32,000 nucleotides of DNA from Candidatus Jordarchaeales archaeon. Its GTDB lineage: Archaea; Asgardarchaeota; Jordiarchaeia; Jordiarchaeales; Freyrarchaeaceae. Positions 6,819 through 29,588 of the stretch are shown here, in pieces. Made by a program: the position numbers and the translations under genes. Position 1 is the stretch's first letter. Every line of letters starts with the position of its first letter. Location: positions 170,120 to 202,119 of the forward strand of contig JAWCFL010000001.1 of NCBI GenBank assembly GCA_038858525.1, given 5' to 3'. The notes below the pieces were generated by a model. It was given only the letters and a program-made list of their open reading frames with translations. It made no database searches and was not told the origin of the DNA.

Positions 6819-7880
6819 ATGACGGTGATTTATGTGCCCAAGATCATTCCGCCGGAGGGTTTGAAAAGAAAGGTTATCGTTAAGAGTGAAGAGGAAACCA
6901 GTGAGGAGTACGGTAAACGTCCTAGCGAGAGGAGTGTGGAGGAGCTTTTAGAGGGGTGCTTCGTGAACATAGATAAGCCGGCAGGCCCGACCAGCCACGA
7001 AGTTTCTTCCTGGGTAAGGAGAATTTTGGGTTGCTCAAAAACTGGACATGCAGGGACACTAGAACCCCTTCAGACTTTGAAGGGGTGGTGAAATCCTAAG
7101 GTTACTGGGGTCTTGCCGGTTGCGGTAGGGTCTGCTACAAAGGTTATACAGGCCCTTCACCTTATAGGGAAAGAATACGTTTGCGTTATGAGGCTCCACG
7201 AGGATGTTGAGGGCGAAAGGATCAAGAAGATCTGTAAGGAGTTTACTGGGCCAATCTATCAGAGGCCGCCGATACGTTCCTCGGTGAAGCGAAGGCTTAG
7301 AGTAAGACGGATATATTACCTCGACGTGCTTGAGGTGGAAGGAAGAAATGTCCTGCTGAGAATAGGATGCGAGTCTGGGACGTACATAAGGAAGCTTTGC
7401 CACGACATAGGGGAGGCGTTAGGGTGCGGCGCTCACATGCGCGAGCTTAGAAGAACTCGAAGTGGACCTTTTACCGAGAGAAACATGGTAACGCTACACG
7501 ACTTAAAGGACGCCTATGTTTTTTGGAAGGAGGAGGGTGATGAAGCTCCCATCAGAAAAGTGTTATTACCAGTAGAGGAGGGAGTGCAGCACTTGCCCAA
7601 GTTTTTCGTGAGGGACTCAGCTGTTGACGCCATATGTCATGGAGCGGACTTAGCTGTTCCCGGCGTAGTCAAGCTTGAAGATGGAGTGGAGAAGGGTGAT
7701 GTGGTCGCGATCTTGACTCTTAAGGGTGAACTAGTCGCTCTGGGCGTTGCCCTGATGACCGTAGAGGAAGTTGTAAGAGAAAAGCGGGGAATAGCGGTTA
7801 AAACGACAAGAGTAATAATGAGCAAAGGAACTTACCCAAAACTCTGGAAAAGCAAGAAGAATAGCGGTTCAATCACGTAG
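6819..7880 (+). CDS. cbf5: H/ACA pseudouridine synthase Cbf5, join(6819..7062,7093..7880), 343 aa after splicing
   Basis: Two same-frame ORFs separated by TGA 7089-7091. Removing 7063-7092 restores [15 protein letters not shown] with the catalytic Asp. [25 protein letters not shown] and PUA domain present. Start could be GTG 6834. Confidence 0.95.
7063..7092 (+). other. BHB (tRNA-type) intron in cbf5, 30 nt
   Basis: Exon helix GGGA/UCCU; central helix CACU(7057-60)/GGUG(7087-90); bulges AG^A and AA^A; perfect 9-bp intron stem ACCCCUUCA/UGAAGGGGU with a GACUU loop. Confidence 0.96.
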
Positions 7881-7890
7881 TTTTACATTC

Positions 7891-7905
7891 CCGAAAAATA
7901 TAAAA
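7891..7905 (+). promoter_or_regulatory. Putative BRE-TATA promoter for rpl44e-rps27e-eif2a
   Basis: CCGAAAA-ATATAAAA about 50 nt upstream of the TTG start, in an AT-rich intergenic gap. Confidence 0.5.
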
Positions 7906-7952
7906 TACCACTAAACTTCTTCATTCCTAAAAAGGCGGGAGGTTAACAGAGG

Positions 7953-8258
7953 TTGAAGTACCCTAAAGTTAGGCGAACTTATTGTCCACGATGTAAAACA
8001 CACACAGAACACTCAGTTAGCGTCTATAAGAAAGGTAAGGATAGGGCACTGGCCGCAGGAGCTAGGCGCTATGCAAGGAAGAAGAGGGGTTATGGAAGCC
8101 AGCCTAAGCTCTTCTATGTCTTATAGAAGAGGGGTAAGCCCGTTCAGAGGGAGTTCGCGAAGACCACTAAGAAGGTTAGCTTTAAGCTTAAATGCAAGGA
8201 GTGCGGTCATACGCTCCACACTAAAGGTATCCGCCTCAAAAAGGCTGAAGCAATTTAA
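7953..8258 (+). CDS. rpl44e: 50S ribosomal protein L44e (eL42), join(7953..8107,8138..8258), 91 aa after splicing; missed by the ORF track
   Basis: [20 protein letters not shown]...[16 protein letters not shown]|[23 protein letters not shown]. In-frame TAG at 8124-8126 lies inside the insertion. Confidence 0.95.
8108..8137 (+). other. BHB intron in rpl44e, 30 nt
   Basis: Central helix GCCU(8102-05)/GGGU(8132-35); bulges AA^G and AA^G; perfect 9-bp stem CUCUUCUAU/AUAGAAGAG with a GUCUU loop; outer exon helix weak. Confidence 0.92.
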
Positions 8259-8274
8259 AGGGGGGATTTAAAAA

Positions 8275-8481
8275 TTGAGGAAAAAACGCGAGGTCATTCC
8301 GCAACCAAGAAGCCGCTTTTTGAAGGTTCAGTGTACTGACTGCGGCGCAGAAAACATAGTTTTTGATAGAGCAAGCACTACAGTTAAGTGCTATATTTGC
8401 GGGAAAGTTTTAGCTGAGCCGAGAGGAGGAAAGGCGCTCCTTCTAGTAAAAAAGGAGAACGTGATTCAAATTTTAAGTTGA
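8275..8481 (+). CDS. rps27e: 30S ribosomal protein S27e (eS27)
   Basis: PQPRSRFLKVQCTDC...VKCYICGKVLAEPRGGKA zinc finger. Confidence 0.96.
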   Translation: MRKKREVIPQPRSRFLKVQCTDCGAENIVFDRASTTVKCYICGKVLAEPRGGKALLLVKKENVIQILS

Positions 8482-8500
8482 AATAAGGGGTTGTAAAGAA

Positions 8501-9292
8501 TTGGTTAAGACGAGAAGGGAGTTTCCGGCAGAGGGAGACCTCGTGATAGCGACTGTAACCAAAATAGCGAACCATGGAGCTTACGTAACATTAGACGAGT
8601 ATGAAGGAAAAGAGGGGCTTGTCCACATTTCTGAGGTCTCCCAAAGCTGGGTTAGGAACATAAGGAACTTCCTTAAAGAGGGGCAAAAGGTCGTGGCGAA
8701 GGTCTTAAGGACGGAGCCGCGCAAAGGCTTCATAGATCTTTCTATTCGAAGGGTTACAGAGCAACAGAAAAGAGAGAAGGTACAAGAATGGAAGCGGGCG
8801 CAAAAAGCGGAGAACTTGCTTGATCTTGCCGCTAAAAAGCTCGGGAAAACCCTTGACGAAGCTTACGAGAAGGTAGGATGGCCACTCGAAGACAAATATG
8901 GAGAGATATACGCGGGTTTTGAGGAGGCCGCGGAAAAAGGCGAGCAGCCCCTCCTTGATGCTGGCGTCAGCGAAGAGTGGAGTAAAGTGATTACAGAGCT
9001 CGCTAAAGCGTACGTTGAGACGCCGAAGGTCAAAATAAAAGGCATCTTTGAGCTTACTTGTTTGAAGCGCGACGGAGTGGAAGCCATCAAAAAAGCACTG
9101 ATTGCTGCGGAGAAAGTTGCAAATGGAGACGTAAATGTTGAGATCTATACTGTGGGGGCACCGCGCTACAGAATAGAGGTGACAGCGAAGGAGTATAAAC
9201 AAGCTGAGAGCATAATGAAGGAAGCGGTTAATGCCGCATTAACTGTAATCAAGGAAGAGGGAGGAAGTGGAACGTTCACACGTGAAAAGTAG
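8501..9292 (+). CDS. eif2a: Translation initiation factor 2 alpha subunit (aIF2-alpha)
   Basis: S1 domain (GAYVTLDEY...EGLVHISEVS...FIDLSIRRV) and C-terminal GAPRYRI motif. Confidence 0.96.
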   Translation: MVKTRREFPAEGDLVIATVTKIANHGAYVTLDEYEGKEGLVHISEVSQSWVRNIRNFLKEGQKVVAKVLRTEPRKGFIDLSIRRVTEQQKREKVQEWKRAQKAENLLDLAAKKLGKTLDEAYEKVGWPLEDKYGEIYAGFEEAAEKGEQPLLDAGVSEEWSKVITELAKAYVETPKVKIKGIFELTCLKRDGVEAIKKALIAAEKVANGDVNVEIYTVGAPRYRIEVTAKEYKQAESIMKEAVNAALTVIKEEGGSGTFTREK

Positions 9293-9320
9293 CTATTTTC
9301 ACACGTGAAAAGTAGCTATT
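9275..9320. repeat. Exact 23-bp tandem duplication TTCACACGTGAAAAGTAGCTATT (9275-9297, 9298-9320)
   Basis: Read directly. It spans the convergent stop codons of eif2a and nop10. Confidence 0.9.
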
Positions 9321-9489
9321 CTTTCCCTGCAAGCTCCTTCTTCAACCTTCGCCTTAAATCTCCAAAGCGGTCTTCTATTGAAAACTTTGGAGGATGCGGA
9401 ACCTTTACCTCGCCCCCACAACGGGGACACGAGTCCTGCCTTAACGTATAACTTCCACAAGAAACACATTTTCTAAGCAAGAAACCCAT
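9316..9489 (-). CDS. nop10: H/ACA RNP protein Nop10, 57 aa; below the ORF-track cutoff
   Basis: MGFLLRKCVSCGSYTLRQDSCPRCGGEVKVPHPPKFSIEDRFGDLRRRLKKE: zinc knuckle plus the HPPKFS-x-ED motif. Confidence 0.93.
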   Translation of the reverse strand: MGFLLRKCVSCGSYTLRQDSCPRCGGEVKVPHPPKFSIEDRFGDLRRRLKKELAGKE

Positions 9490-9524
9490 TCCATAACCGC
9501 TCCCTTTTTACCGATCTTCCTCCT

Positions 9525-11996
9525 TTACGGGGGCGCGCTTACTTCAACATTTATCTCTCTAGTGAATTCAGGTATAGATGTCTCTATTTTTAAAGGAACG
9601 CTTTTTCCACTTTCAAGACTCAAACCGCTATTGAAGGGTATACTAGCAGTCTCTCCAGGCCCGATGGAAACAGCAGAAATACTGCAGGATGTGCCGTTAA
9701 CATATAGCTTCGTCACGTTGAAGGGGACTAATCCAGTATTACGGATTTCCACTGTTCCACTTCCGTTAGTATAGATGCTCGCATTTACGATGTCCATGTT
9801 TGCGTCTAGTATCGAGTAATCAATCTTGTAGATTTTTACTAAGTGATTACTGGATATGAAGACGGGTTTAAAGTGATTCAGGACGCTAAATCCGTGCTTC
9901 CACCATGAGTACCATCCAGGCGGGCTCCTCGCTTCATCATAAGAGATTACGAGCGGATACTTATTCTGGTCCATGTAATTGTGGAGGGCATAATCCAGTA
10001 TTAATTTACTATAAGAAGGATACACGTCTGGTGATGGGTCATGGTAGTAGAGGAGCTTGTAGAGGGTCATGTTAAAGAACTTGGGTGTGTAAATTGTGCC
10101 TGTTAGCGTTGGAGTGTAGTACTCGTATTCCCAAGGCGTGTAGAAGACGTCGAAGGAGATCTTAGCCATCCATATCCATTTTCCTTCGTCTCCGTGGAGG
10201 TTGGCATCGTTGTGTCCAAAGTAGACTAGAACATGTGTGGCGTTGAAATAACGGAGGATCTCTAGGCTTTCTGTTTCGTTCGTGGTGGTTAGTGCTCGTC
10301 CGACGAGAGCTATTTGTGTGGTGTTGAGCGTGGCGTTGTCGACTACCGTTGTCTTGTTTCCTCTGACCATGATCCAGTACCCGTAATCCCACCAAGAAAC
10401 CACTATAGCATCGGAGGGCAACTTGTTCTGCATGAAAATAAACGCTTCCTCCCAGTCGAAGTAGAAGTTCCCGTATCGGTCTCTAGGGACGAATTGCGGA
10501 GCGCCAGAGTAGACGGCTACAGTCATGCCGTGAGAGAATGAGAAAAACAGAATGAGCCCTGTAATGGCTAAGACTACAGCGGCAGATTCTCTTCCCAAGA
10601 TGCGCTTTACGATGACACGCCGCCTCTTAATGGGTATCCTTCGTTCTCCTAACACTAGTTTTGAGAGAGGATCATAAATTGATGAAAGAGCGAACCCGGA
10701 GAGTAAGCACGCTACTGGAGCGAACATGACGATAAGACGAACCATGGAGGCAGCCATGTAAACAGTAGTTGCGCCTAAAATTATGAGGAGAAGGTCTTCG
10801 TTTCGCCTTCTTTGAAAGAGAAGATACATTCCTGCAGGAAACAGTATGACAGTTGCATGTAGGTCGTAGAAGAACATGCTCCATGATGTTGTAGCGTGCT
10901 CAGCGACACTTGACACTATGATCTCTTCTTCCCTGTAAAATGGGTTAATCACTGAGAAGTAACGTCCACTAATTTGAATAAATGAGCGGATGCCAGATGA
11001 TAAAGACAACGAAAAAATCGGGTTTATAGAATACGCGACAGCTACTCCTGTCATGATCACGATCACTATGATAAATATCGTCACGGCGAGATTACGTTTG
11101 TTCTTGACGAAGACATGAAGTTTAGGTGCCTTGACAGCGAGTGTTTCAGAAATGGAGGCGAGTGTAGGTTTAATGCGGGGATACGCTTCCCATGATATCA
11201 GGGCGAGTAAGACTAGCATTGCGAGGATGCAATTGCTTGAAATTATGTATTCACTACCGTGGAATGGAACCCTCGTTCCTATAAATGCCCCTATCAAGAT
11301 CGTGATGCTGTAGGTCATTAGCAGGTTTGTCGAGTACCTTTTCATTAGTATTAGGAGAATGACTGTGAGAGGATAAACGTATAGTAGGTAAATGGCGGCA
11401 CCCCAGCTTGCTATGAAGCCGCCGAGGGCTAAACCAGCTATAACGGCTGAGGGGATAGATGACCTCTTCATGGATCTTATGAAGAAAAAGAGGGAGAGCA
11501 GAAAGAAGAACAAGCCAACACACTCGTTATCAACTAGACCTGCGATCGTTCGTTCTATTGCTCCCGGCAAGAACGACAGCAAAAATGAGGAGATTAGGCC
11601 AGCCTTGTCATCCAGCACCTCGCGTCCGAGAAAGAAGAGCACGACGCATGATGCTGCTCCCATTATGGCGGGGAGAAAGTAGCACACCATGTGTATGTTG
11701 ACGTTAAACCCTATAGATCTTAGCAAGAAAAAGAGGGTTGCAGCTGTGAACGGCACGCCGGGAAGGTAACTTCTGGACATGTCTAAGCCATAGGGGTACC
11801 ACATCATCGGGTTATACCATCCAAACCACACGGAGTAACCGTAAATACTTATGAAGGCGGCGTTATAGTACTGTATCGTTGAGTCATAATCCGATATATA
11901 TGGAGGATACATGAAAAAGGGGTAAAGCCTTAACAAAAAGGCTAGCAGAGTGATTAGTGATACGCTCAGAACGAGAAGGAGGTTCCGCCTGTCCAC
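9525..11996 (-). CDS. aglB: Oligosaccharyltransferase AglB/STT3
   Basis: Multi-TM N-terminal half, RTIAGLVDNE, SVAEH, WWDYG, DNATLN and DEGKWIWM motifs. Confidence 0.95.
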   Translation of the reverse strand: MDRRNLLLVLSVSLITLLAFLLRLYPFFMYPPYISDYDSTIQYYNAAFISIYGYSVWFGWYNPMMWYPYGLDMSRSYLPGVPFTAATLFFLLRSIGFNVNIHMVCYFLPAIMGAASCVVLFFLGREVLDDKAGLISSFLLSFLPGAIERTIAGLVDNECVGLFFFLLSLFFFIRSMKRSSIPSAVIAGLALGGFIASWGAAIYLLYVYPLTVILLILMKRYSTNLLMTYSITILIGAFIGTRVPFHGSEYIISSNCILAMLVLLALISWEAYPRIKPTLASISETLAVKAPKLHVFVKNKRNLAVTIFIIVIVIMTGVAVAYSINPIFSLSLSSGIRSFIQISGRYFSVINPFYREEEIIVSSVAEHATTSWSMFFYDLHATVILFPAGMYLLFQRRRNEDLLLIILGATTVYMAASMVRLIVMFAPVACLLSGFALSSIYDPLSKLVLGERRIPIKRRRVIVKRILGRESAAVVLAITGLILFFSFSHGMTVAVYSGAPQFVPRDRYGNFYFDWEEAFIFMQNKLPSDAIVVSWWDYGYWIMVRGNKTTVVDNATLNTTQIALVGRALTTTNETESLEILRYFNATHVLVYFGHNDANLHGDEGKWIWMAKISFDVFYTPWEYEYYTPTLTGTIYTPKFFNMTLYKLLYYHDPSPDVYPSYSKLILDYALHNYMDQNKYPLVISYDEARSPPGWYSWWKHGFSVLNHFKPVFISSNHLVKIYKIDYSILDANMDIVNASIYTNGSGTVEIRNTGLVPFNVTKLYVNGTSCSISAVSIGPGETASIPFNSGLSLESGKSVPLKIETSIPEFTREINVEVSAPP

Positions 11997-12258
11997 TCTA
12001 ACTTTAGCAGCGTAGAAAAGCTCGCTTATAAGGGATGATAATCTTTTTCTCGCCAGTTGCGCCGCCTCCCCTATATGTCCCTTTACAACCTCCTTTATCT
12101 CACACTGCTCTTTTAAAAATTATCTCTCTTTCTATTAGACGAAAGACTATGTAGCCTGAAATCTAAGGCATGCAATACTAAATAGATGATAAGGTTTATA
12201 AAAGGATGGGGTGTAGTCCCCTTATCGTGACTCACACCAAGAACCTGAAGGGGATTGG

Positions 12259-12879: not shown

Positions 12880-12916
12880 ACATTTATTTTTGATGCTTAT
12901 AGTGGAGGGGACCTAT

Positions 12917-15259: not shown

Positions 15260-15868
15260 TTAAATAATTTTCGAGGATGTTAGCCATTCAGCAAGCTTCC
15301 TGAGGGCTCTCGCCCTATGTGACAGCTTATTCTTTTCCCTAACGTCGAGCTCGGCAAAGCTCCTTCCATCACCCTCCTCAGGTATAAATATAGGGTCGAA
15401 ACCAAATCCACGTTCTCCCTTGACGGCGTGAGATATGAAGCCTGAAGCCTGACCTTTAAACACCAGCATCTCCTTGCCATCTGTGAACGCCACAACCGAA
15501 ACAAAAACAGCTCTCCTGTTATCGACGCCATCCATAAGTTTTAGCACGCCTTCATTGCCTATTTTGCTGAAGACATAGGAGGAATAAGGTCCTGGGAACC
15601 CGTTGAGCGCCTCTATGAAGAGGCCGGCGTCCTCAACGAAAAAAGGGCATCTTGGATTCGCCTCCCGCATCAGCCAAGCCAGACTAATCCTAGCGATCTC
15701 TTCCAAGCTTTCCGACTGGACCTCGAGGCGCTTCACGTCCCACTGTTCAACATTTAACCCGTACTCTGAAAAAACGATCTCAGCTTCTTGAAGCTTGTGC
15801 CTGTTACTTGTGGCGAAGAGGACATGTTTCACCTTTCCCAGTAGCGCCCCCTCCTTTCGATCTCCCAC
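15260..15868 (-). CDS. rdgB: XTP/dITP diphosphatase (Ham1/RdgB)
   Basis: FATSNRHK, EDAGLFIEALNGFPGPYS, GFGFDPIF and SHR motifs. True start may be a few codons downstream. Confidence 0.94.
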   Translation of the reverse strand: MGDRKEGALLGKVKHVLFATSNRHKLQEAEIVFSEYGLNVEQWDVKRLEVQSESLEEIARISLAWLMREANPRCPFFVEDAGLFIEALNGFPGPYSSYVFSKIGNEGVLKLMDGVDNRRAVFVSVVAFTDGKEMLVFKGQASGFISHAVKGERGFGFDPIFIPEEGDGRSFAELDVREKNKLSHRARALRKLAEWLTSSKII

Positions 15869-16455
15869 ATTTTATCTATAACTTCATTTGCCCCCTCAAA
15901 GGCGTCCCTATAACCTTGAAGAACAGCGTTGAATCCTTCTTCGAAAACGTCGTAATGACTGCTTTCCATTGCCCGCTTCATCAAGTGCAGGTCAACTCCC
16001 AAGTCCTCAACGTTCCTCGAAAAGTCTCCAAGCCCAAAATCGATGAAAAAAATCTTCCCGTTACTAACAATCATGTTTGAAGTTGTCAGGTCTCCGTGTA
16101 CTATGCCCTCCCTGTGAAGCCGCCCTATTAATTCGCCCACCTCACGCAACAACCTGACAAGTTCTTCGCGCGGCAAACCTCCTTCCTTTATGAGGTCACT
16201 TAAAGTTCTTCCATCAATGTAATCCATAATTATAGAGGCGGATTCTAAGTCGACGAGGTAAACTGTGGGCGCCGGGACGCCGGCTCTCTTTGCGCTATGA
16301 AGCAAGCGCGCCTCACGAATAACTCTCTGTCTTCTTAAGCTGTCATCCAGTTCCTTGATCCTGTAAAGCTTAGGCTTACGCTCCTTAACGACAACTCTTC
16401 GCCCAAAAACATGGCTAAGGAGAAGATGAGCTTCAGCCCCCTTCTTGATCATCAC
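15829..16455 (-). CDS. bud32: KEOPS kinase Bud32
   Basis: KGAEA, REARLL, HGDLTTSNM, IDFGL and VEDLGVDL motifs. Confidence 0.95.
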   Translation of the reverse strand: MMIKKGAEAHLLLSHVFGRRVVVKERKPKLYRIKELDDSLRRQRVIREARLLHSAKRAGVPAPTVYLVDLESASIIMDYIDGRTLSDLIKEGGLPREELVRLLREVGELIGRLHREGIVHGDLTTSNMIVSNGKIFFIDFGLGDFSRNVEDLGVDLHLMKRAMESSHYDVFEEGFNAVLQGYRDAFEGANEVIDKMWEIERRGRYWER

Positions 16456-16461
16456 CGTATC

Positions 16462-17492
16462 TCACCTCTCACTCTCAACCCATGATACTTGAACCTCGTC
16501 AAGCCTCCACCTCGGCTTCACGTAGCTTTCCTCCACCCTTAGGATCCTTCCACTAACATACTCTAATATTCCTGTCCAGGCGATCATTGCTCCATTATCT
16601 CCTGCCAACTGCTGGGGGACCACGTGGAAGGAGGCGCCATGCTCCTCAGCTATCACTCTGATCATTTCTTGCAACCTCCTGTTTCTGCCGACACCTCCCG
16701 TCAGTAGAACGTCACCTTTACGCGTGTGCGCCAGAGCCCTCTCAGTCACTTCAGCCAGCATGGAGAAGCAGACTTCCTGAACGCTGTAGCACAGATCTTC
16801 AACTTTGCAACTACCAATCTTGCCAACCGCAGCGGTGTAAACCCCAGAATAGGAGAGGTCCATTCCCTTGACGACATATGGCAGCGGAATAAAAGTGCTT
16901 CCTTTACTCGCCAGCTCTTCGACCTTTGGCCCGCCAGGATGCTTTAAACCCAGCGCCCTAGCGAGCATGTCAAGCATGTTTCCGATGGCCAAGTCAAGCG
17001 TCTCCCCAAAGACACGGTACCTGCCTTTCTCGTAAGCTGCAACCAGAGTGTTTCCTCCAGAAACATACAACGTTAAGGGGTCTTCAACGTTCTCGGTGAG
17101 ACGCCCAATTTCTATGTGGGCTAAACAGTGATTAACGCCCACTAAGGGAACGTTTAACGCCAGTGCAAGCGCTCTGGCAGCCGTCGCCACCGTTCTCAGG
17201 CAAGGGCCTTTGGGGGCTTCGCCAACCCCGGCCCTTGAGAGAACGCGACCAAGTTAACCTCACTTATTTTGATTCCGGCTTCGCTTATAGCTGAGGTGAT
17301 CGCCTGCTTAACCGCGTTCGAGTGGTGCTGCGCGGCTTCCCTAGGGTGGATCCCGCCCTCAGCGGGCACATACTCGTCTCTGATGTTCGCTAGAATTTCT
17401 CCTTCACTACTTGCCACTCCTACACCTAAAGTGTGAGCTGTTCCTTCGAGCCCCATGCATAGCAGGCGGCGGCCGCCCAGTGCCTTCCTCAC
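16462..17492 (-). CDS. kae1: t6A synthase Kae1 (TsaD), complement(join(16462..17209,17224..17492)), about 338 aa after splicing
   Basis: N-terminal LEGTAHT, GGIHPREAAQHH and FSQGPG are in one frame. ATAARALA, VNHCLAHIE, VSGGNT and GDNGAMIA are in another. Removing 17210-17223 gives FSQGPGLGPCLRTVATAAR. Start codon (GTG 17492) is uncertain. Confidence 0.93.
17210..17223 (-). other. Minimal BHB intron in kae1, 14 nt (GGCGAAGCCCCCAA)
   Basis: mRNA reads CAAGGGCC GGGG UU^G GC GAA GC CCCC AA^A GGCCCUUG: 8-bp exon helix, 4-bp G-C central helix, two 3-nt bulges and a 2-bp stem with a GAA loop. Confidence 0.94.
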
Positions 17493-19439: not shown

Positions 19440-19853
19440 TTATAAAATTTCCCCATCAAGAAACAAACGTCTTCCCTGCCTTAGAAAGACCACAGGCACA
19501 CCAACCCGCCTGAGACGCCTACGAAGCTTGGCGTCATTAGTCGCCACAACACAACCCTCCCTCTTAGCATAATCGAAGACCGCGTCATCTACGCCCCCAC
19601 CCTCCACCCCCGATGGGCAAACCCTAAACCCTCTTACCTCAACGAGAGACAAGGCAGCCCTTGCCAGTTTCCCTCTCCTCCCACCCTTCTCAGCCAGCTT
19701 CATCAACTCATCAATAACCCGATCCAAAACAATAACCTCATAGCGCCCACCAATAACCCGACCAAGCTCTGAGAAGACATCCCATCCCAACAGAAACGGA
19801 GCAATCAAAAAGTTACTGTCAACTAAAACCCTAACATATGATCCCCCACCCAA
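19440..19853 (-). CDS. PIN-domain protein (Fcf1/Utp24-like)
   Basis: LVDSNFL, VIDEL, DD and VATND acidic PIN motifs; canonical position downstream of eif2g. Confidence 0.9.
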   Translation of the reverse strand: MGGGSYVRVLVDSNFLIAPFLLGWDVFSELGRVIGGRYEVIVLDRVIDELMKLAEKGGRRGKLARAALSLVEVRGFRVCPSGVEGGGVDDAVFDYAKREGCVVATNDAKLRRRLRRVGVPVVFLRQGRRLFLDGEIL

Positions 19854-21121
19854 TAAGCCTCCACCTTCCCGAAACCATCCTGCTCACAGCCACCCTCTGA
19901 CCATCCTCAGCACACACAGGACGCCGCAGCGCCACTTCAACCTCCCCACTCCTAATCGACGATACAACGCCCACTGTCACCGCCGACCCAACATTCAGCA
20001 TTAAAGCCTCATTAACACGCACATTCTCCACCCTGGAAAGCTCCTCGCTTCCCACAACCCTATCCATCAGGTGAAGCTCAATACACAAATCCTCACGCAC
20101 GGGAGGAAGGGTCCCGGGAGAACCTACAACGTTCCCAATCAAACCATCAGCCTTCGTCAAAGAGGGGTCCAGCCGCGTACCAACACCAATCAACCCACCT
20201 GGCAAAGCTTCCTCAAGCCACACGTCACCAGCATGCAAACTTACAACGTCAGCATAAATAGGCTCAAACTTACCTTTAACAGCAACTCCCGGACGAATTT
20301 CAACCTCATCCCCAACCCTAACTCTACCTTGAATAATGGTTCCACCAATAACGCCCCCAACAAGATCCTCAGGCCTAGTTCCCGGCTTATTCACATCAAA
20401 TGACCTCGCCACATACATCCTCAAAGGCTTACCCGGGTCTCTAACCGGATTAGGAATATGCTCTTCCATGAACTGCAACAAAGCATCCAAATTAACACCA
20501 AAAACAGCCGAAACAGGAACAATAGGAGCATCCTCAGCAAAACTACCACCAATAAACCTCTTAATCTGTCTAAAGTTTTCTAATGCCTTCTCCCTAGAAA
20601 CAAGCTCAACCTTATTCTGAACAATAACAACATTCCTCACACCAATAATCTCCAAAGCCGCAAAGTGCTCTCTAGTCTGCGGCTGAGGGCAAAACTCATT
20701 AGCAGCAACAACAAAAACACAACCATCCATCAAAGACGCACCACTAATCATGGTCGCCATTAACCGCTCATGACCAGGACTATCCACAAAGCTGACCTTC
20801 CTCACAAACTCAGCTTCACTCCCACACTTAGGGCACTTCCACCCCCCAGCCATAGCCAAAGTAAAGTAGCAGTCAGGAGGCGGGCAAGATGGACACTTCA
20901 AAATAATAGCATCAGCATAACCCAACTTAATCGTAATACCACGACGCTTCTCCTCACTATGACGATCAGTCCACACACCAGCCAAAGCCTGCACAAGCGT
21001 GGTTCTTGGCCCGCGAGAGAGACACTCCCAACGGATTGCCATGATCCACGTCTCTAGCACCAGCTGATCAACAGCTGGCGAGTCCAGCTGTTCCCACAGA
21101 AACTAAAGCCTGCGTACTCAT
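19831..21121 (-). CDS. eif2g: Translation initiation factor 2 gamma subunit (aIF2-gamma), complement(join(19831..21004,21036..21051,21082..21121)), 409 aa after splicing
   Basis: The ORF-track protein lacks the P-loop. Removing two inserts gives [61 protein letters not shown], NKVE and RWRLIGWG motifs are downstream. Confidence 0.94.
21005..21035 (-). other. BHB intron 2 in eif2g, 31 nt
   Basis: Central helix UGGC/GCCA (4 Watson-Crick pairs); bulges AA^U and AG^A; intron stem CCGU-U-GGGAG/CUCUC-GCGG. Splicing restores the P-loop Lys codon (AA+A). Confidence 0.92.
21052..21081 (-). other. BHB intron 1 in eif2g, 30 nt
   Basis: Central helix CUGG/CUAG; bulges AC^U and AG^A; 9-bp stem CGCCAGCUG/CAGCUGGUG with a UUGAU loop; in-frame TGA at 21070-21068. 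Splicing restores the His codon (C+AC). Confidence 0.92.
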
Positions 21122-21190
21122 GGCCTTCTTATAAGCTTCGTCCAAACAAGAACCCCCAAGAGCTTTTAGGAAAGTCTTCACGAAAGCGTT

Positions 21191-21205
21191 ATTTAAAAGT
21201 TTCCA
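21191..21205 (-). promoter_or_regulatory. Putative BRE-TATA promoter of eif2g
   Basis: Minus strand TGGAAAC-TTTTAAAT about 70 nt upstream of the inferred ATG at 21121. Confidence 0.45.
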
Positions 21206-22271
21206 GCGAAAGGATGAGGAAGGGTAGATGGTGGCGATACGAACAGTCAGAGCGGCGGGTGTTTGTTTATGTGTTTTGGCGGAGGCGGGATGTCGGGGGT
21301 TCTAAAAAATATGTCTATTTGTGTGATGAGAAACTTGGGGATGAGGAGCTTGCTGATTAGGGGTTTCGTTACCGGGAGGAGAGAGTTATTGTGATGAGCT
21401 AGGTCTTTACGACGGGGCCACCCAGCGTTTACCCGTAAACCTTCTGGGAGCTGGGAAGCTTGGTTGGAGCTTCTCAGTTTGCGTTCCGCTTCTTGGATGC
21501 AAGGGAGCGTCGATGAATGTGGTGTTAATTCTATAAGCTTGCCCCCCCTCTTATGAGAGTTTACGTGTTAATTAACGTTGAGCTGGTGGAGAATCGATGA
21601 GGGGGGGCTGTGAGTTAGGAGCCTGAGATGAAAGAGATTGGCGGGGAGCCAGGTTTCAGAGGTAGGCACATCTCGAGTACGGAAAGGTGGAAAACAAAGC
21701 CTGGCGAAATGGTTGATGGCCCATAAAGACGAGGTGAGATTCAAGGGGCTGCCTGGAGCTGTGAGGAGCAAGGTGAAAAACACGGCAAAATTTGACCGAC
21801 AAGCTCACGCATAAGTAACTCATAAATGCCATAGCCCAACTTATTATTACTCAACAAGAAAAATAAGCTGACGCTTAAGACAAACAACAGCTCACACACC
21901 AAAACTAGCCAGGCTTCAATCAATAACAATAATACGCCAAACCCAGCCAGTAACAAGAGAGCTACCATCCATCACGCAACAAAACCACAAGGATGCCCAC
22001 ACCAGGACCAGTAAGCCTATACACCAAAACAATCCACGAACCCACACAACCAGAAAACTAACCAAAACCACACAAAAATACCGAAAATACCGAAAAAAGC
22101 TCCAAACACCACCACCCACCCATAAACAACCTGACCATCTAATAATAATTACTCAACCACAACACCGAAAAACACAAAAACAAAAAACGACAAGTTCACA
22201 GAAGAGTCGAAAAAAATAAAAAACCAGACAAGTAGACAATCCTAGTAAACATCTAATAGGAGGGTTTTAAG

Positions 22272-23636: not shown

Positions 23637-23810
23637 ATGAAGTCGGTGTCTTTTAGGGTTCCTGAGGAGTATTTGAAGGGGCTTGGTGTTCTTGTTGAGC
23701 TTGGGGTCTTTAGGAGTCGGAGTGAGGCTGTTCGTGCTGCTGTGAGGGAGTTGCTACGGAGGGAGGGTGTTTTCGAGGATGAGGTGGCGGTGGTTGTTGA
23801 TGTTGATTGA
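23637..23810 (+). CDS. Ribbon-helix-helix (CopG/Arc/MetJ-like) DNA-binding protein
   Basis: MKSVSFRVPEEYLKGLGVLVELGVFRSRSEAVRAAVRELL fits the RHH pattern (SRSEAVR.AVR.LL). Confidence 0.8.
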   Translation: MKSVSFRVPEEYLKGLGVLVELGVFRSRSEAVRAAVRELLRREGVFEDEVAVVVDVD

Positions 23811-23855
23811 TGAAGGTGTGGTTTTCTCTTGGGTGGGGTTTAGGGAGGGGTTGGC

Positions 23856-24557
23856 TTGGGTAGGATTTGTGTTTCGTTGATGGCTGATACTGTGGAAGGA
23901 CTGATGGGCAAGGTTGAGAGGGCGTGTGAGGCGGGGGCGGACTTAGTTGAGTTGCGGTTGGATTACTTAAGGGAGAGGGATGTGGATGTTGCGGGGCTGG
24001 TTTCTGGTTTGGGTGTGCCTGTGATTTTGACTGTGAGGCGTAGGGAGGAGGGAGGGGTTTTCCCGCTGGGGGAAGAGGAGAGGGTGGGGCTGATTGAGAG
24101 GTGCATTGAGGCTGAGCCGGACATGGTGGACCTTGAGTTGTCGATGGGGGTTAGTGTTCTTCAGAAACTCATCTCCCTTTGTAGGGAGAGAGGGGTTTCG
24201 GTTATTCTTTCATATCACGACTTTAGTGGGACGCCTTCCTGGCAGGATCTTAGGGGGAGGGTGGCGGCCATGTTTAGGTTGGGTTGTAGTGTGGCTAAAG
24301 TTGTGACTGCGGCAGGGGCTATCAGTGATAATCTGCAACTTTTGGGGCTGGCGTCCCTGTACCCTCAGCGCGTGGTAGCTTTCTGTATGGGTAAGATAGG
24401 GGTTCTGTCTAGGGTTCTGTGCACGTTTTTTGGGTCGCCGTTCACGTATGCCTCGTTGGATGCGCCGCTTGCCCCGGGGCAAATAGACATTGCAACTATG
24501 AGGAAGGTGCATGAAAGCTTGGCTCGCATACTCGATGCGGTGGGGAACCATGTTTGA
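23856..24557 (+). CDS. aroD: Type I 3-dehydroquinate dehydratase
   Basis: ADLVELRLDYL, ILTVRRREEGG, VDLEL, SYHDF, AKVV, FCMG and APGQ motifs. Confidence 0.93.
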   Translation: MGRICVSLMADTVEGLMGKVERACEAGADLVELRLDYLRERDVDVAGLVSGLGVPVILTVRRREEGGVFPLGEEERVGLIERCIEAEPDMVDLELSMGVSVLQKLISLCRERGVSVILSYHDFSGTPSWQDLRGRVAAMFRLGCSVAKVVTAAGAISDNLQLLGLASLYPQRVVAFCMGKIGVLSRVLCTFFGSPFTYASLDAPLAPGQIDIATMRKVHESLARILDAVGNHV

Positions 24558-24733
24558 GGCGGGCTTCGCCGGCGGCTTCTGGCGTTCAGCGTTTATCCGG
24601 ATCAGTTTGAGGTTGGGTGTTTTTGAGGCGTGATAGTGGGGGGGGAAGCGGGGGTCCACGGGCTTCGTGATTGTGGTTGGAGCTTGGTCTTCTTTTCGTG
24701 TTTTTGTGTTTGATGGGTTGCTCAGCTGTGGAG

Positions 24734-24749
24734 CGATAAAAATATAAAT
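24734..24749 (+). promoter_or_regulatory. Putative BRE-TATA promoter of rpl10e
   Basis: CGATAAAA-ATATAAAT about 40 nt upstream of TTG 24789. Confidence 0.5.
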
Positions 24750-24788
24750 TATTGTGGTTTGGGTTGTTGTGAATTGGGGGTTTGTGGC

Positions 24789-25316
24789 TTGCCGAGGCGA
24801 CCATCTAGGTGCTATACGAGGATTGATGGGCCACCTTATACGCGGGTTGAGTATATTCATGGGAGCCCGCCTTCCAAGATTAGGATTTACGAAATGGGAA
24901 ATGCTAGTCGCAACTATACTTTGAGGGCTGACTTGGTTATCGATGAGGCTTGTCAAGTCACGGACGGCGCTCTCGAGGCTTTGAGGGTTGCGGCTAGCAG
25001 GCATCTCACGAATAGCTTTGGGCGTGACGGATTCTACCTCAAGATTAGGCCTAAGCCCTTCCACATTATTCGTGAGAGGAGGATGTTGGCGTTCGCCGGG
25101 GCAGACCGTTTACAGGACGGCATGAGGAAGGCTTTCGGCAAGCCTTCAGCGAGGGCGGCGCGCGTTAAGGAAGGAGAAGTTATTTGCAGCGTTTGGGTCG
25201 ACGATTCGCCAAAGGCTGTTGAAGCTGTTAAGAAGGCGCTTTACGTTGGGGCTAGGAAGCTTCCCCGTCCATCCCACATAGAGTTTACTAGAGGGGAGAG
25301 CCTAACCTTAAAGTGA
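24789..25316 (+). CDS. rpl10e: 50S ribosomal protein L10e (uL16)
   Basis: RRPSRCYT...PPYTR.EY, ALEALR, PFHIIRE..ML.FAGADRLQDGMRKAFGKP motifs. Start placed at TTG 24789. Confidence 0.96.
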   Translation: MPRRPSRCYTRIDGPPYTRVEYIHGSPPSKIRIYEMGNASRNYTLRADLVIDEACQVTDGALEALRVAASRHLTNSFGRDGFYLKIRPKPFHIIRERRMLAFAGADRLQDGMRKAFGKPSARAARVKEGEVICSVWVDDSPKAVEAVKKALYVGARKLPRPSHIEFTRGESLTLK

Positions 25317-25928
25317 TTGCGGATCTCCGGATAGGATCCGCCATTCCTCGTCTTTGTGAAGCTTGCTGAACTCTGGACCAGTGGCGCCCGCATACTTTGG
25401 TAGTGGCTTTTTAAGGTAGCTGCTTTCCCCTCCAGTTACCCTGTGAAGGACTAGCTGTGCTATTCTGGCGGCGGGGTAAAGGGCTATGTCTGCCTCTCCT
25501 AGGTTCACGAGTTCAAGTGTTAAAACGCCGGCGTAGCCCGGGCTGACAAGTGTTGCTGTGGCGATGATTAGGCCTAGGCGACCCCACGAGGAGCGCCCTA
25601 TCACGTACCCCATGAGGTCTTCGGGGAGCTTTATGTACTCTAGAGTGCTTCCAAGTATGAGCTGGTTTGGGCGCAGTATGAGCTTCTCGCGGAAGGGGAC
25701 ATGGATCTTTTCTTGGTACTGCGCTATTTCTGCTTCTATGTTTTGCTGCGCGGGGTCTAGAAGGGAATACTTTGTACGCTTCGTTATGATGAACTCTGTT
25801 CCAAGCCTAAGGTCGACTGACCCTGCGGAAACCTGGCTCTTCGAGATTAGAGGTGTTATTACTAGTTTCTCTTGAGTGTTGGACGTGAATAGTCTTCGCA
25901 GGATCTCCTCTTTTGAAAGGACGGTCAT
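25308..25928 (-). CDS. dcd: dCTP deaminase (trimeric dUTPase-fold Dcd)
   Basis: SVDLRLG, GRSSWGRLGL, PGYAGVLTLEL and RIAQL motifs. Confidence 0.93.
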   Translation of the reverse strand: MTVLSKEEILRRLFTSNTQEKLVITPLISKSQVSAGSVDLRLGTEFIITKRTKYSLLDPAQQNIEAEIAQYQEKIHVPFREKLILRPNQLILGSTLEYIKLPEDLMGYVIGRSSWGRLGLIIATATLVSPGYAGVLTLELVNLGEADIALYPAARIAQLVLHRVTGGESSYLKKPLPKYAGATGPEFSKLHKDEEWRILSGDPQSL

Positions 25929-27070
25929 ATTTCCGCCTCTAGCAAGCTTTTGTGTATTATGCTCAGTTCTATTGCTTTTTCTATTAGGGCGGCAAGCTTT
26001 TTCTTTGCTTGGTATTTCCCTTCAGGATCCTGAACTTTCAGGATGTTGCAGAAGGTAGGCATATAGCGCTGCTTAACTATCCAGCCGGCGTTTATTATTG
26101 AGGGTATCTCGGCGGGGCGCGTAGCCTTGTCTGGTAAAGTGACCTCGTTTGGGGGAAGTAGCTCTAGAAGTCTTGAGACAAGCTGAGGAACCTCGCACTC
26201 AAAAACTTCGGGAGGGTAGTAGGCGGCTGTTTTCCTAAAGGATTCTTCTATCTCGTGGAGGCGCTCTATGCCGGTAGATGAGCGCAGCTCTTCTAGAGGA
26301 GGCAAAGAGCCGCTCAGGAGCTCCTCTTCATAGTAACCTTCATCTGCGAGCAGGGCGGCTATGTTTCGTATGCGCTCTTTTACATCGGAAGCAAGTGACG
26401 CATCGAAATTTGTGAGTGTGAAGAGGTAGGCTGGGCCGACCATTAAAGAAGCTAAACGGTCTGCGGCGATTATTAGAAGCTTGTTCGAGGATCCCTCCCC
26501 GGTAAGGGTTTCTTCGAGAAGACGTTTTGATTCTATCATGTGGAGAGCTAACTCACGCGCTACGAGGCAGTGTGAAAGAGGGTCGTTCCTCAGGAAGTAA
26601 GGAAGGGTGAAGAAGAGAACTTCTTCTTTAAGCTCTCGGCTTTCCGGGGGGAGAAGGGGGGCGGCGAGTTTGAGGATGTCTGAGAGGCGAGAGTGAGAGG
26701 ACGTGTAAGATTGAAAGCAGATGATGGGGACCGCTTCTTCACCTGCTTTCCCGGTTAGGTATTCTGCCAGGTACACTGCTCCTAAAGAGGTGTAATGAAC
26801 GTTCGAACGCTCTATTTTTTCGATGAGGCCACAAATCGCTTGTAAAAGTTCATATCCCTTCTCGACTAAAGCTTTCGTGGAGGAAGAGGGCGGAAGAGAT
26901 TCTAGAGAAGAGCGCAGGTTCCAGACAAGTGAGAAGAGAGATTTAACAGCTCTCCTTTGAGTTGGCCTAGGAAAGACTCCCAGCTCGATCCGCCTCAAAA
27001 GTTCTTCCAAGTCGAGGAATTTCTCTACGAGAATCTCCGAGCTTTTTGTCTCCAACAAGGAACACCTCAC
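25925..27070 (-). CDS. Uncharacterised about 380-aa protein, translationally coupled to dcd
   Basis: Long ORF overlapping the dcd start (ATGA). It has segments resembling a degenerate zincin helix (ARELALH; AADRLASLMVGPAY) and a C-terminal IINAGW. Start may be TTG 27058. Confidence 0.75.
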   Translation of the reverse strand: MRCSLLETKSSEILVEKFLDLEELLRRIELGVFPRPTQRRAVKSLFSLVWNLRSSLESLPPSSSTKALVEKGYELLQAICGLIEKIERSNVHYTSLGAVYLAEYLTGKAGEEAVPIICFQSYTSSHSRLSDILKLAAPLLPPESRELKEEVLFFTLPYFLRNDPLSHCLVARELALHMIESKRLLEETLTGEGSSNKLLIIAADRLASLMVGPAYLFTLTNFDASLASDVKERIRNIAALLADEGYYEEELLSGSLPPLEELRSSTGIERLHEIEESFRKTAAYYPPEVFECEVPQLVSRLLELLPPNEVTLPDKATRPAEIPSIINAGWIVKQRYMPTFCNILKVQDPEGKYQAKKKLAALIEKAIELSIIHKSLLEAEI

Positions 27071-27374
27071 CAGTCATTTTGGTTGATCAGCCAAGTTCTA
27101 AAGGATTTCTCCCCTATAAACGGCAAATAAGGTGGGAGAGCGACAAACTACTCATAGATAGGTCATCACTCATAAGGAGAAACAAGTGAACCTGTGTCAG
27201 AGTTACTTTTAATGCTGCCATAGCCGGGGTTAAGTGTTAAAGACGTGGCTGAGGTTGGCCTTTAAGTTGAGTTTTTGATGTTGCTCTTGATGAGGCCTGC
27301 TCCCTTAAAGTTCAAGAGGGAGCGTGACAAATTTGATGAGGTGTAAATGTCGTTTTCTATACTTAGGAAAAATA

Positions 27375-27390
27375 GACAAAGTTTAAATAG
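27375..27390 (+). promoter_or_regulatory. Putative BRE-TATA promoter of the methyltransferase/ATP-grasp gene
   Basis: GACAAAG-TTTAAATAG, with a second CTTAAATA at about 27419-27426. Confidence 0.4.
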
Positions 27391-27506
27391 GAATGTGTTA
27401 GAATAGGGAAGATAAAGACTTAAATAAGTCTTGGTGAAAATACCCTGTTTGAAAAATGCGAGCTTTCTTTTTTTTAAAAAGAAAGGATGGGGAGAAATGG
27501 ATAACG

Positions 27507-29588
27507 ATGAGTGGTGATTCCGAAGATAATAATGAGAAACATAAAAAGCGCCATGTCAACGGTTCTAGAGGGAAAAAAAGTAACGGCGCGGGCGGTAATC
27601 ACAGTAATGGCAGCAATCACAGGCAAAGCGTAAAAGTCCTTGGTCCCGTAAGCAACTTAGAGGAGTACGTTCCACACGACTGGTGGAGTCGAATCTTCAA
27701 CTCGCTTTACCTAAAGACTGACGGGGACGTTGTAGACGACCAAGAGATTACGCGTTACGAAGTGGACTTGTTCTCCTCGATCCTAAAGCTTAAGCCTGAA
27801 GACAGGATCCTCGATTTGTGCTGCGGTCAGGGACGCCACTCCTTGGAGCTAGCGAGGAGAGGATATAAGTTCGTTGAGGGACTTGATAAGTCGCATTACC
27901 TGATACATAAAGCTAAGGAAAGAGCGAAAAAAGAAGGGTTAAATGTCAGGTTCAGGGTTGGCGATGCGAGAAAGTTACCCTACCCACCGGACACTTTTGA
28001 CGTCGTGATGATCTTGGGGAACAGCTTCGGCTACTTTGAAACGGTATACGACGACCTTAGAGTGCTAAAGGAGGTTTTCAGGGTTCTGAAGCCGTGGGGC
28101 CGGGTTCTAATAGATGTAGCTGACGGAGAATACCTCAAGGAGCACTTCCAGCCTCGCTCGTGGGAATGGGTGGACAAGAAGCACTTCGTTGTCCGAGAGC
28201 GCTCATTATCAGCTGACCGGCAACGCCTCATATCCCGAGAGATAATCACGCATGTTGAGAAGGGAGTTATTGCAGACCACTTCTATGCGGAAAGGCTCTA
28301 CACGAAAGAAGGACTCAGAGACCTCTTGCAGCAAGCCGGCTTAAGCGACGTCACTATTCACGGGGACTTAACGACGTTTTCTAAGCGCAACCAAGATTTA
28401 GGAATGATGGAGAAACGCATAGTAATCACCGCCATAGCCAAGAAAGAGTGGACGCCGATAAAGAGAAGAGAAAAAGAGTCACTCTTAACGGTCGCAGTAA
28501 TCCTAGGCGACCCAACTAAACGCGACCCACTAAAACCCGGCGGGGTATTCGACGAAGACGACATTTACACGATCGACGCGCTCAAGGACGCGTTAAGACA
28601 ACTTAATGGCTACAACTTCATATACCTAAACAACCACGATAACTTACTCCAAGACTTGATTAAACTCAAGCCGAAAATAGATTACGTCTTCAACTTGTGT
28701 GATGAAGGATTTAACAACGATCCAAGAAAAGAGTTACACGTCCCAGCGATACTTGAAATGCTCAATATACCTTATACCGGCTCAGGGCCACAACCTCTAG
28801 CCCACTGCTATGATAAATCCCTGATAAGGGGATTGGCGAGAGAAATGGGGATTCCTGTTCCCAAGGCAGTCCTGATTAAGCCAGAAGACGAATCCGTCGA
28901 GATACCCTTCGGCTTTCCGGCCATAGTAAAGCCAAACTTCGGCGACTCAAGCTTTGGAATCACATGTAGGTCAGTGGTTAACAACTCCGAGGAGCTCCTA
29001 AACGCCATAGCCGAAATACGCGAAAGGTTTGGCTACAACAGACCAATACTTATCGAGGAGTTCTTGACCGGAAAGGATCTAACAGTAGGAATAATAGGAA
29101 ACGTACCTGATTCCTACATGGTTCTACCCATAACGGAAGAAGACTACTCGAGTCTACCAGAAGGAATGCCTCCGATTTGTGGCTACGAAGCAAAATGGCT
29201 TCCCGACTCGCCATACTGGAATATTAAAACGAAGCCAGCGGAGCTACCGCCTGAAACAGAAACGATCATTGTAAAGTCGTGCATCAGCCTCTTTGAACGA
29301 CTCGAAATCAGAGACTACTGCAGGTTCGACTGGAGGCTTGACGCAAACGGAAGGCCAAAGCTTCTCGAGGTCAACCCCAACCCCGGATTGGGTGCACCTA
29401 ACGGTGCGCCGCACGGAAGGTGTTGGGACGGGCACCTCGCAAAGATGGCGAAGTTCGCAGGGATGTCTTACGCTGAGATGCTAGGAGCCATCCTAAGGGC
29501 GGCAGAGCAGAGACTGGGCATCCGACCGAAATACGAGAAATATGAGAAGGTAGGGGAGGAAGCCCGGGTAGAGGCGAGGGCAACATAA
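27507..29588 (+). CDS. Class I SAM methyltransferase fused to a D-Ala-D-Ala-ligase-like ATP-grasp domain; probably join(27507..29388,29419..29588)
   Basis: ILDLCCGQGRH, GDAR and GNSFGYF (methyltransferase); NLCDEG, IPYTGS, VKPNFGDSSFGI, IEEFL, RFDWR and LEVNPNPG (ATP-grasp). ATG 27507 preferred over the track start at 27456. Confidence 0.9.
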   Translation: MSGDSEDNNEKHKKRHVNGSRGKKSNGAGGNHSNGSNHRQSVKVLGPVSNLEEYVPHDWWSRIFNSLYLKTDGDVVDDQEITRYEVDLFSSILKLKPEDRILDLCCGQGRHSLELARRGYKFVEGLDKSHYLIHKAKERAKKEGLNVRFRVGDARKLPYPPDTFDVVMILGNSFGYFETVYDDLRVLKEVFRVLKPWGRVLIDVADGEYLKEHFQPRSWEWVDKKHFVVRERSLSADRQRLISREIITHVEKGVIADHFYAERLYTKEGLRDLLQQAGLSDVTIHGDLTTFSKRNQDLGMMEKRIVITAIAKKEWTPIKRREKESLLTVAVILGDPTKRDPLKPGGVFDEDDIYTIDALKDALRQLNGYNFIYLNNHDNLLQDLIKLKPKIDYVFNLCDEGFNNDPRKELHVPAILEMLNIPYTGSGPQPLAHCYDKSLIRGLAREMGIPVPKAVLIKPEDESVEIPFGFPAIVKPNFGDSSFGITCRSVVNNSEELLNAIAEIRERFGYNRPILIEEFLTGKDLTVGIIGNVPDSYMVLPITEEDYSSLPEGMPPICGYEAKWLPDSPYWNIKTKPAELPPETETIIVKSCISLFERLEIRDYCRFDWRLDANGRPKLLEVNPNPGLGAPNGAPHGRCWDGHLAKMAKFAGMSYAEMLGAILRAAEQRLGIRPKYEKYEKVGEEARVEARAT
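29389..29418 (+). other. Probable relaxed BHB intron, 30 nt, in-frame and stop-free
   Basis: Bulges AU^U and AA^G; central CCGG/ACGG (3 pairs plus G.A); 8-bp stem GGUGCACC/GGUGCGCC with a UAAC loop; exon helix CCCAAC/GUUGGG. Removal converts NPGLGAPNGAPHGRCWDG into NPGWCWDG. Confidence 0.75.

Follow-up and report, generated by a model that had tools for sequence, protein, structure and literature searches.

The 32,000 nucleotides (nt) analysed here, referred to as the window (G000:C1:170120-202119), come from the assembly of a Candidatus Jordarchaeales archaeon (G000; 2.09 Mb, 63 contigs, 92.7% complete, 2.8% contamination). Among named relatives the closest is Candidatus Jordarchaeum sp. LHC_1308, whose aIF2-gamma is 88% identical. 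The window contains a cluster of genes for ribosomal proteins and translation factors, with L19e to L15, SecY, cbf5, L44e, S27e, aIF2-alpha, Nop10, AglB and S3Ae, as well as Pcc1, S15, Bud32, Kae1, S24e, RpoE, aIF2-gamma, EF-1alpha and L10e. Within these 32 kb, five protein genes are interrupted by six inserts of 14 to 31 nt: cbf5, rpl44e (eL42), kae1, the aIF2-gamma gene (twice), and a methyltransferase/ATP-grasp gene (Table 1). A preliminary description of this DNA took the inserts to be introns of the bulge-helix-bulge (BHB) type known from tRNA genes, and they are called introns below where they are compared with their counterparts in other genomes.

The relatives used for comparison belong to family f1 (G001-G004) and family f2 (G005-G010, of which G006 is closed at 3.6 Mb). 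The assignment to the class Jordiarchaeia follows the GTDB naming in bioRxiv 10.64898/2026.10.13.758758, and on that reading f1 is Jordiarchaeaceae and f2 is Freyrarchaeaceae. The reference genome G011 (1.4 Mb, closed, single contig) is presumed to be an Odinarchaeum.

Table 1. Exons and inserts (predicted introns) of the five interrupted genes in window coordinates, followed by candidate introns elsewhere in the G000 assembly in contig coordinates; helices are given as 5' strand/3' strand, in base pairs (bp).
Feature	Position	Strand	Details or basis
cbf5 exon 1, DKCLD domain	6819..7062	+	Pfam DKCLD 1.8e-15; GHAGTL, then G, the first base of the catalytic Asp codon
cbf5 insert, 30 nt	7063..7092	+	full hBHBh'; helix CACT/GGTG; bulges AG|A, AA|A; 10-bp inner stem; 4-bp outer stem; in-frame TGA
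cbf5 exon 2	7093..7880	+	Pfam TruB_N from profile position 17, TruB_C_2, PUA
rpl44e (eL42) exon 1	7953..8107	+	Pfam Ribosomal_L44 profile positions 1-36 of 76
rpl44e insert, 30 nt	8108..8137	+	helix GCCT/GGGT (two G.U); bulges AA|G, AA|G; 10-bp inner stem; no outer stem; in-frame TAG
rpl44e exon 2	8138..8258	+	Pfam Ribosomal_L44 profile positions 38-74 of 76
kae1 exon 1	17224..17456	-	starts MGLEGTAH, ends ...FSQGPG + TT; Pfam TsaD profile positions 2-60 of 264
kae1 insert, 14 nt	17210..17223	-	helix GGGG/CCCC; bulges TT|G, AA|A; GC(GAA)GC inner hairpin; 8-bp exon-exon outer stem; frameshift
kae1 exon 2	16462..17209	-	starts A + GGC CCT TGC (L-GPCLR); Pfam TsaD profile positions 64-264 of 264
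aIF2-gamma exon 1, MSTQALVSVGTAG + C	21082..21121	-	sequence reading
aIF2-gamma insert 1, 30 nt	21052..21081	-	helix CTGG/CTAG; bulges ACT, AGA; 9-bp inner stem; in-frame TGA
aIF2-gamma exon 2, 16 nt, AC GTG GAT CAT GGC AA = (H)VDHG(K)	21036..21051	-	
aIF2-gamma insert 2, 31 nt	21005..21035	-	helix TGGC/GCCA; bulges AAT, AGA; frameshift
aIF2-gamma exon 3	19831..21004	-	Pfam GTP_EFTU, GTP_EFTU_D2, eIF2_C
methyltransferase/ATP-grasp exon 1	27456..29388	+	Pfam Methyltransf_25; Dala_Dala_lig_C, last residue at profile position 177 of 204
methyltransferase/ATP-grasp insert, 30 nt	29389..29418	+	relaxed BHB; helix CCGG/ACGG (3 bp + G.A mismatch); bulges ATT, AAG; frame open
methyltransferase/ATP-grasp exon 2	29419..29588	+	
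PpsA break, in-register BHB, 20 nt	C1:42657-42676		G011 census
PIMT break, in-register BHB, 31 nt	C1:145116-145146		G011 census
EF-2 break, in-register BHB, 29 nt	C4:81118-81146		G011 census
break with in-register BHB, 30 nt	C2:68773-68802		G011 census
break with in-register BHB, 24 nt	C5:70254-70277		G011 census
break with in-register BHB, 24 nt	C13:45688-45711		G011 census
HypD, 16 nt, within CGTHE motif	C44:4886-4901		frame-rescue scan
radical-SAM gene	C21:5929-5956		frame-rescue scan
candidate	C2:6357-6386		frame-rescue scan
candidate	C3:105835-105865		frame-rescue scan

Inserts and reading frames

All six inserts lie exactly where the preliminary description had placed them, and its account of their effects was equally accurate. 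In-frame stops are found inside three (TGA in cbf5, TAG in rpl44e, TGA in the first of aIF2-gamma), two cause frameshifts (14 and 31 nt) and one is open, so that five would otherwise ruin the protein. Excision with a cut after the second nt of each bulge restores the frame and a conserved motif in every case. The result is five open reading frames (ORFs), each with a single terminal stop, and the junction peptides GTL-D-PKV (Cbf5), GSQPK-PVQ (L44e), GPGLGPCLR (Kae1), GTAGHVDHGKTTL (aIF2-gamma) and PGWCWD (methyltransferase).

The codon at the junction is itself split in five of the six. This affects the catalytic Asp of Cbf5 (G|AT), the His (C|AC) and the P-loop Lys (AA|A) of aIF2-gamma, a Leu of Kae1 (TT|A) and a Trp of the methyltransferase (T|GG). 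These five codons are thus absent from the DNA and would exist only after the RNA has been joined.

It might be supposed that such genes are pseudogenes, or that the inserts are assembly or sequencing artefacts, in an assembly with the contig number, completeness and contamination given above. This is extremely improbable, since inserts at the same codons are present in up to ten other independent assemblies, one of them closed, and since the interrupted genes are essential and single-copy, with exons that are conserved and free of other lesions. Intact, intron-free paralogues elsewhere in the genome, which had been named as grounds for abandoning the intron interpretation, are not present: each of the five genes was found just once in the 92.7% complete G000 assembly.

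Structure of the inserts

The 4-bp helix between two 3-nt bulges on opposite strands, which defines the BHB motif, has all four pairs in five of the six inserts, with two G.U pairs in rpl44e. The motif is retained in the orthologous introns. The earlier statement that all six fold in this way holds for these five; the methyltransferase insert has only three of the four pairs and is a relaxed form. An inner helix (h') of 2-10 bp is present in all six. The outer helix (h) is 4 bp in cbf5, 8 bp in kae1 and 6 bp with a bulge in the methyltransferase gene, and in the other three, rpl44e and the two of aIF2-gamma, it is reduced to 0-1 bp. For the cbf5 intron, the full motif is reproduced by the minimum-energy fold (z = -3.9).

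Such structures are common by chance. A loose descriptor (4-bp helix with no more than a single G.U, inner stem of 2 bp or longer) was rejected as a discriminator, having about 950 matches per window strand and 426,274 in the genome, or approximately 1.7e-3 per position and length. The BHB structure by itself is not above chance; what exceeds chance is its exact register at six breaks that were set independently by homology. At these breaks a Pfam match runs out where one exon ends and resumes where the next begins (L44 1-36 then 38-74; TsaD 2-60 then 64-264), the rpl44e exons being contiguous on the Ribosomal_L44 profile except for the junction codon. The loose descriptor is satisfied in exact register at four of the six breaks, for which, by our own estimate and allowing each site up to three registers, the chance is about 1e-8. 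Frame and motif are restored not only in the six inserts but also in some 30 orthologous instances of differing length, and alleles without the intron fix the excision points to the base.

Other kinds of intervening sequence do not fit. Self-splicing introns have a ribozyme core of hundreds of nt and an intein is an in-frame protein-splicing domain. At 14-31 nt the inserts were rejected as group I or group II introns or inteins, and an Rfam search of the window found nothing at the gathering score.

Conservation and covariation of the introns

The cbf5 intron is at the identical site in 11 of 11 Jordiarchaeales genomes compared, with lengths of 27, 29, 30, 31 (n=5), 32 (n=2) and 35 nt. Helix and bulges are constant in these orthologous introns and the hairpins vary, with a closing pair that alternates between A-T and G-C. 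In other Asgard families the GTLDP motif is uninterrupted, and among the Asgard genomes sampled the intron occurs only in Jordiarchaeales. The insertion point, between the first and second bases of the catalytic Asp codon (CTA G | AT CCT), is the one used in Crenarchaeota (PMC2738675). In rpl44e the orthologous introns are 30, 30, 29, 29 and 29 nt and the helix covaries (GCCT/GGGC, GCCC/GGGC).

The kae1 intron is 14, 14, 13, 14 and 14 nt long in family f1, 28 in G006 and 28 in G011. Its outer stem is built from both exons and has double compensatory changes at synonymous third positions (CAA...CCT versus CAG...CCC; GGG...GGC versus GGT...GGA), by which pairs are swapped from A-T to G-C and from G-C to T-A. 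The kae1 frame also stops at the intron site in families f3 and f20, and does not in the remaining families sampled. In G011, upstream of the Kae1 match at C1:794801-795535, the region of approximately 795536-795600 (minus strand) has a 28-nt frameshifting BHB-like insert at the same kae1 codon, with a helix, GGGT/GCTT, of one G-C pair and three G.U pairs. Together with the frame ends in f3 and f20, this insert indicates that mRNA introns are not restricted to Jordiarchaeia. A Jordarchaeum-like kae1 with a 13-nt intron, the length seen in G003, is present at 4411-4461 of metagenome contig L138 (Ga0105158_1000104). It was also observed that kae1 and bud32 are in one frame in the window (15829-17456, minus strand), parted by a single TGA at 16462-16464; the two genes are fused in some archaea.

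The first aIF2-gamma intron is found only in G000 (30 nt, CTGG/CTAG) and G002 (33 nt, CCGG/CCGG), a compensatory change of the helix. It is absent from G003, G004 and G006, where GHVDHGK is contiguous. The second is 31, 29, 29 and 30 nt long in the four Jordiarchaeaceae that have the gene, with a T-A pair of the helix replaced by C-G, and G006, of the Freyrarchaeaceae, has neither. Introns therefore appear to be gained and lost on short time scales, given that the methyltransferase insert is in G000 alone and that the first aIF2-gamma intron is shared by only two of the four family members with the gene. Those of kae1 and cbf5 are old.

It is conceivable that the ribosome passes the inserts without splicing, by translational bypassing, programmed frameshifting or recoding of stop codons. 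Hairpins within coding gaps do look like bypass elements, AAG stands at both ends of the rpl44e insert in the manner of a take-off and landing pair, and some stop codons are recoded in this lineage, selenocysteine and pyrrolysine having been reported in Jordarchaeia (PMC9723677). The short hairpin inserts in the coding sequences of T4 gene 60 and the byps of Magnusiomyces mitochondria, which are likewise absent from the protein, are the known parallels. Bypassing in those systems, however, needs matching take-off and landing codons, and the codons are intact, whereas here five of six junction codons are split, the BHB motif is conserved, and AAG at both ends occurs only in rpl44e. Neither hopping nor frameshifting can yield the catalytic Asp of Cbf5 or the His or Lys of aIF2-gamma from split codons, and therefore hopping, frameshifting and stop recoding are excluded as general explanations. 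Two kinds of in-frame stop, TGA and TAG, are spread over three inserts, and covariation preserves the BHB motif rather than a take-off and landing pair. In addition, insert lengths vary modulo 3 between species, and such variation is tolerable only where the segment has been taken out before the RNA is translated. Passage of the ribosome is accordingly very unlikely as an explanation of these inserts.

The methyltransferase insert

The insert of the methyltransferase/ATP-grasp gene is the weakest case, and its splicing would seem less certain than that of the other five because its central helix is imperfect and its frame open. It was found in G000 only; PGWCWD is uninterrupted in five relatives (three congeners and two paralogues in G006). 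It could alone be unspliced, a recent in-frame insertion of 30 nt that is translated, with the conserved Trp replaced by 11 residues. A frame without stops, only three of four central helix pairs, and a restriction to G000 that leaves no conservation to argue from are all compatible with this. Yet the insert matches the other introns in size (30 nt), hairpin and bulge composition, it has an 8-bp inner stem and is flanked by a 6-bp exon-exon helix with one bulged base, and the standard cut rule rebuilds the TGG codon for the Trp of PGWCWD, which is invariant in the five relatives. Translation of this insert is therefore unlikely, though to be taken seriously.

Splicing enzymes and the proposed mechanism

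The archaeal splicing enzyme EndA, an endonuclease, makes its cut between the second and third bases of the bulge. The rule agrees with the published cbf5 work and with every instance examined here. Two ORFs with the EndA domain (PF01974) are present in G000, in the C3:81835-82089 and C43:5978-6235 regions. The conserved motifs retain Tyr, His and Lys in one (191 amino acids) and lack the His in the other (198 amino acids). The ligase RtcB (PF01139) is encoded as well. Asgard EndA has been described as an (alpha-beta)2 enzyme with a broad-specificity loop (PMC5829648), and the G000 pair, one catalytic and one His-less subunit, fits the heterotetrameric type.

In the proposed mechanism, each intron-exon boundary in the transcript would lie inside a 3-nt bulge, and the two bulges would be on opposite strands of the 4-bp helix, stabilised by the hairpin of the intron and sometimes by an exon-exon helix. 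EndA, with its catalytic and His-less subunits, would then cleave after the second base of each bulge, and ligation of the exons by RtcB would create the junction codon.

Some observations weigh against this interpretation. In rpl44e and the two aIF2-gamma introns there is little or no outer helix; these three are thus relaxed HBh' forms and would need an EndA of broad specificity. The isolated segments of kae1 and of the first aIF2-gamma intron prefer another pairing in the minimum-energy fold, and the methyltransferase insert, as described, keeps its frame open and has a mismatch in its central helix. Scans of metagenome contigs for exon-exon junctions found no spliced rpl44e, and one unspliced relative of kae1 with a 13-nt intron.

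Nevertheless, the six inserts are very probably archaeal BHB introns in pre-mRNAs, cut out by the enzymes of tRNA splicing. The comparative evidence is the strongest part of the case, and to this are added junction codons that would exist only after joining, the lack of paralogues, and the presence of genes for both EndA and RtcB. From these we infer that cleavage and ligation take place in vivo. The core of the preliminary description, that mRNAs of essential genes are spliced by the tRNA machinery, therefore holds in this inferred form, with less certainty for the methyltransferase insert.

Probable introns elsewhere in the genome

Two approaches were taken to the remainder of G000. In a census by homology, the ORFs of G011 were compared with G000 by tblastn, and collinear split matches and insertions containing stops were sought. 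The census gives a lower bound, as it misses short exons and introns common to both genomes, such as that of kae1, and it recovered two of the six window introns (cbf5 and rpl44e). In a frame-rescue scan, strong frame-restoring motifs numbered 6-8 at the true register compared with 0-3 at registers shifted by 1-2 nt, for an overall excess of approximately 10-25. This signal required an A-rich 3' bulge, a length of 36 nt or less, and strong stems. A looser motif, or filtering by coding potential and nothing else, gave no enrichment over shifted registers, the signal being swamped by same-strand gene boundaries, and these versions of the scan were rejected. The sites found by either approach are listed in Table 1.

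As a rough estimate, G000 has 20-50 mRNA introns in total, at least 10 of them beyond the window, a range that allows for the low sensitivity of the census. The expectation of many more introns across the genome is thus upheld in kind. Extrapolation of the window density would have implied about 400, far more than the register control and homology census support, and the window is about ten-fold enriched in introns relative to the genome.

Two further candidates in the window were discarded: the ORF taken for S10 codes for a small protein of ribbon-helix-helix-like type, and the start codon of L10e is TTG. A comparison with the reference genome gave 533 insertions, and no hidden stop-free in-frame intron was found among them. 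Outside the window, 42 nt without a stop are inserted in frame in the C5:6563 region of G000 when it is compared with the reference (GGGN|...|GEELYGYT); they contain a 9-bp hairpin and, in BHB register, a 4-bp helix, and are a candidate for a hidden in-frame intron.

The tRNA genes of this genome are also interrupted. ARAGORN identified 11 tRNA genes in G000, 8 with introns. Most of the tRNA genes probably escape detection because they are so broken up by multiple or non-canonical introns, and the count fits the heavy fragmentation of tRNA genes published for this clade (PMC11291895).

Origin of the introns

Between exon 1 of rpl44e and the 3' arm of its intron there is an 11-nt direct repeat, AGAAGAGGGGT (window 8082-8092 and 8125-8135), with none as long in 500 shuffles. 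It may be a trace of the birth of this intron by local duplication. As a general origin, local duplication of exon sequence was rejected, a significant direct repeat being present in one (rpl44e) of 16 introns tested and in none of the other 15. Likewise, the introns are not a repeated, mobile sequence family; blastn-short of the 16 against the genome returned self matches only.

Other features of the window

The region of approximately 1.1 kb between the genes for aIF2-gamma and EF-1alpha (window 21130-22250) has no credible ORF. It contains a C/D-box-like element at 21299-21349, with GTGATGA...CTGA boxes recognised by eye and a weak match to Rfam SNORD38 (21 bits, E = 0.34). This is followed by a G-rich and possibly structured segment (21350-21800) and an A/C-rich tract of about 420 nt (21820-22240).

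Relation to known splicing systems

An intron in the pre-mRNA of crenarchaeal cbf5 was reportedly described by Watanabe in 2002 and by Yoshinari in 2006. It is the precedent for the introns described here, and in 2009 splicing was stated to be unconfirmed for any other archaeal gene (PMC2738675, Yokobori 2009). In the papers searched, cbf5 is still the sole protein gene of archaea whose intron in the coding sequence is confirmed. The cbf5 introns of Desulfurococcales and Sulfolobales share with these the BHB motif within a coding sequence, a hetero-oligomeric EndA, the identical site, a similar size range with variable lengths, and lineage-specific loss. They differ in that the host here is an Asgard archaeon in which many genes, not cbf5 alone, are interrupted.

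The introns of archaeal tRNA and rRNA genes have the same motif, cut rule, presumed enzymes and small size (13-35 nt), and occur in the same lineage, tRNA genes being very intron-rich in Freyarchaeia, Atabeyarchaeia and Jordiarchaeia (PMC11291895; bioRxiv 10.64898/2026.10.13.758758). Non-canonical and multiple positions and repeated gain are further common features. Here, however, the substrate is mRNA, and any exon-exon helix must be built from codons, as the covariation at synonymous sites of kae1 illustrates.

Splicing of the HAC1 and XBP1 mRNAs of eukaryotes is similar in that a short mRNA intron is excised by proteins alone, at sites defined by stem-loops, and its removal changes the frame. 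That process is regulatory, with cleavage by Ire1 and ligation by Trl1 or RtcB (RtcB in metazoa). It differs in its endonuclease, Ire1, in its recognition motif and in its regulatory role, for which the introns described here offer no evidence.

Full-text searches found no publication on mRNA introns in Asgard archaea. The papers on Jordarchaeia, Freyarchaeia and Atabeyarchaeia that they returned concern tRNA introns only (PMC11291895; bioRxiv 10.64898/2026.10.13.758758). What is new is therefore a set of host genes and a lineage for a known kind of intron, on a scale that is undescribed in print.

Implications for Asgard biology

Splicing of mRNA by the tRNA machinery looks routine in the Jordiarchaeia lineage, given six introns in five genes within 32 kb, at least ten more elsewhere, and alleles with and without an intron in sister species. 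Tentatively, and with a chance we would place a little short of even, at least two Asgard classes, Jordiarchaeia and, by way of the presumed Odinarchaeum G011, Odinarchaeia, may carry tens of mRNA introns that depend on tRNA-splicing enzymes and are still being gained, in essential genes of translation. If this is true, interrupted protein genes and obligatory mRNA splicing would be normal in close relatives of eukaryotes, and control of the translation apparatus could be exerted through splicing.

There are also consequences for the annotation of these genomes. Gene callers will take essential genes, among them those for aIF2-gamma, Kae1, L44e and EF-2, for pseudogenes or truncated copies, and genes miscalled in this way distort estimates of completeness, marker sets for phylogenomics and metabolic reconstructions. 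The alleles with and without introns, for their part, provide a tractable system in which to follow the entry of protein-spliced introns into coding sequences among the closest relatives of eukaryotes.

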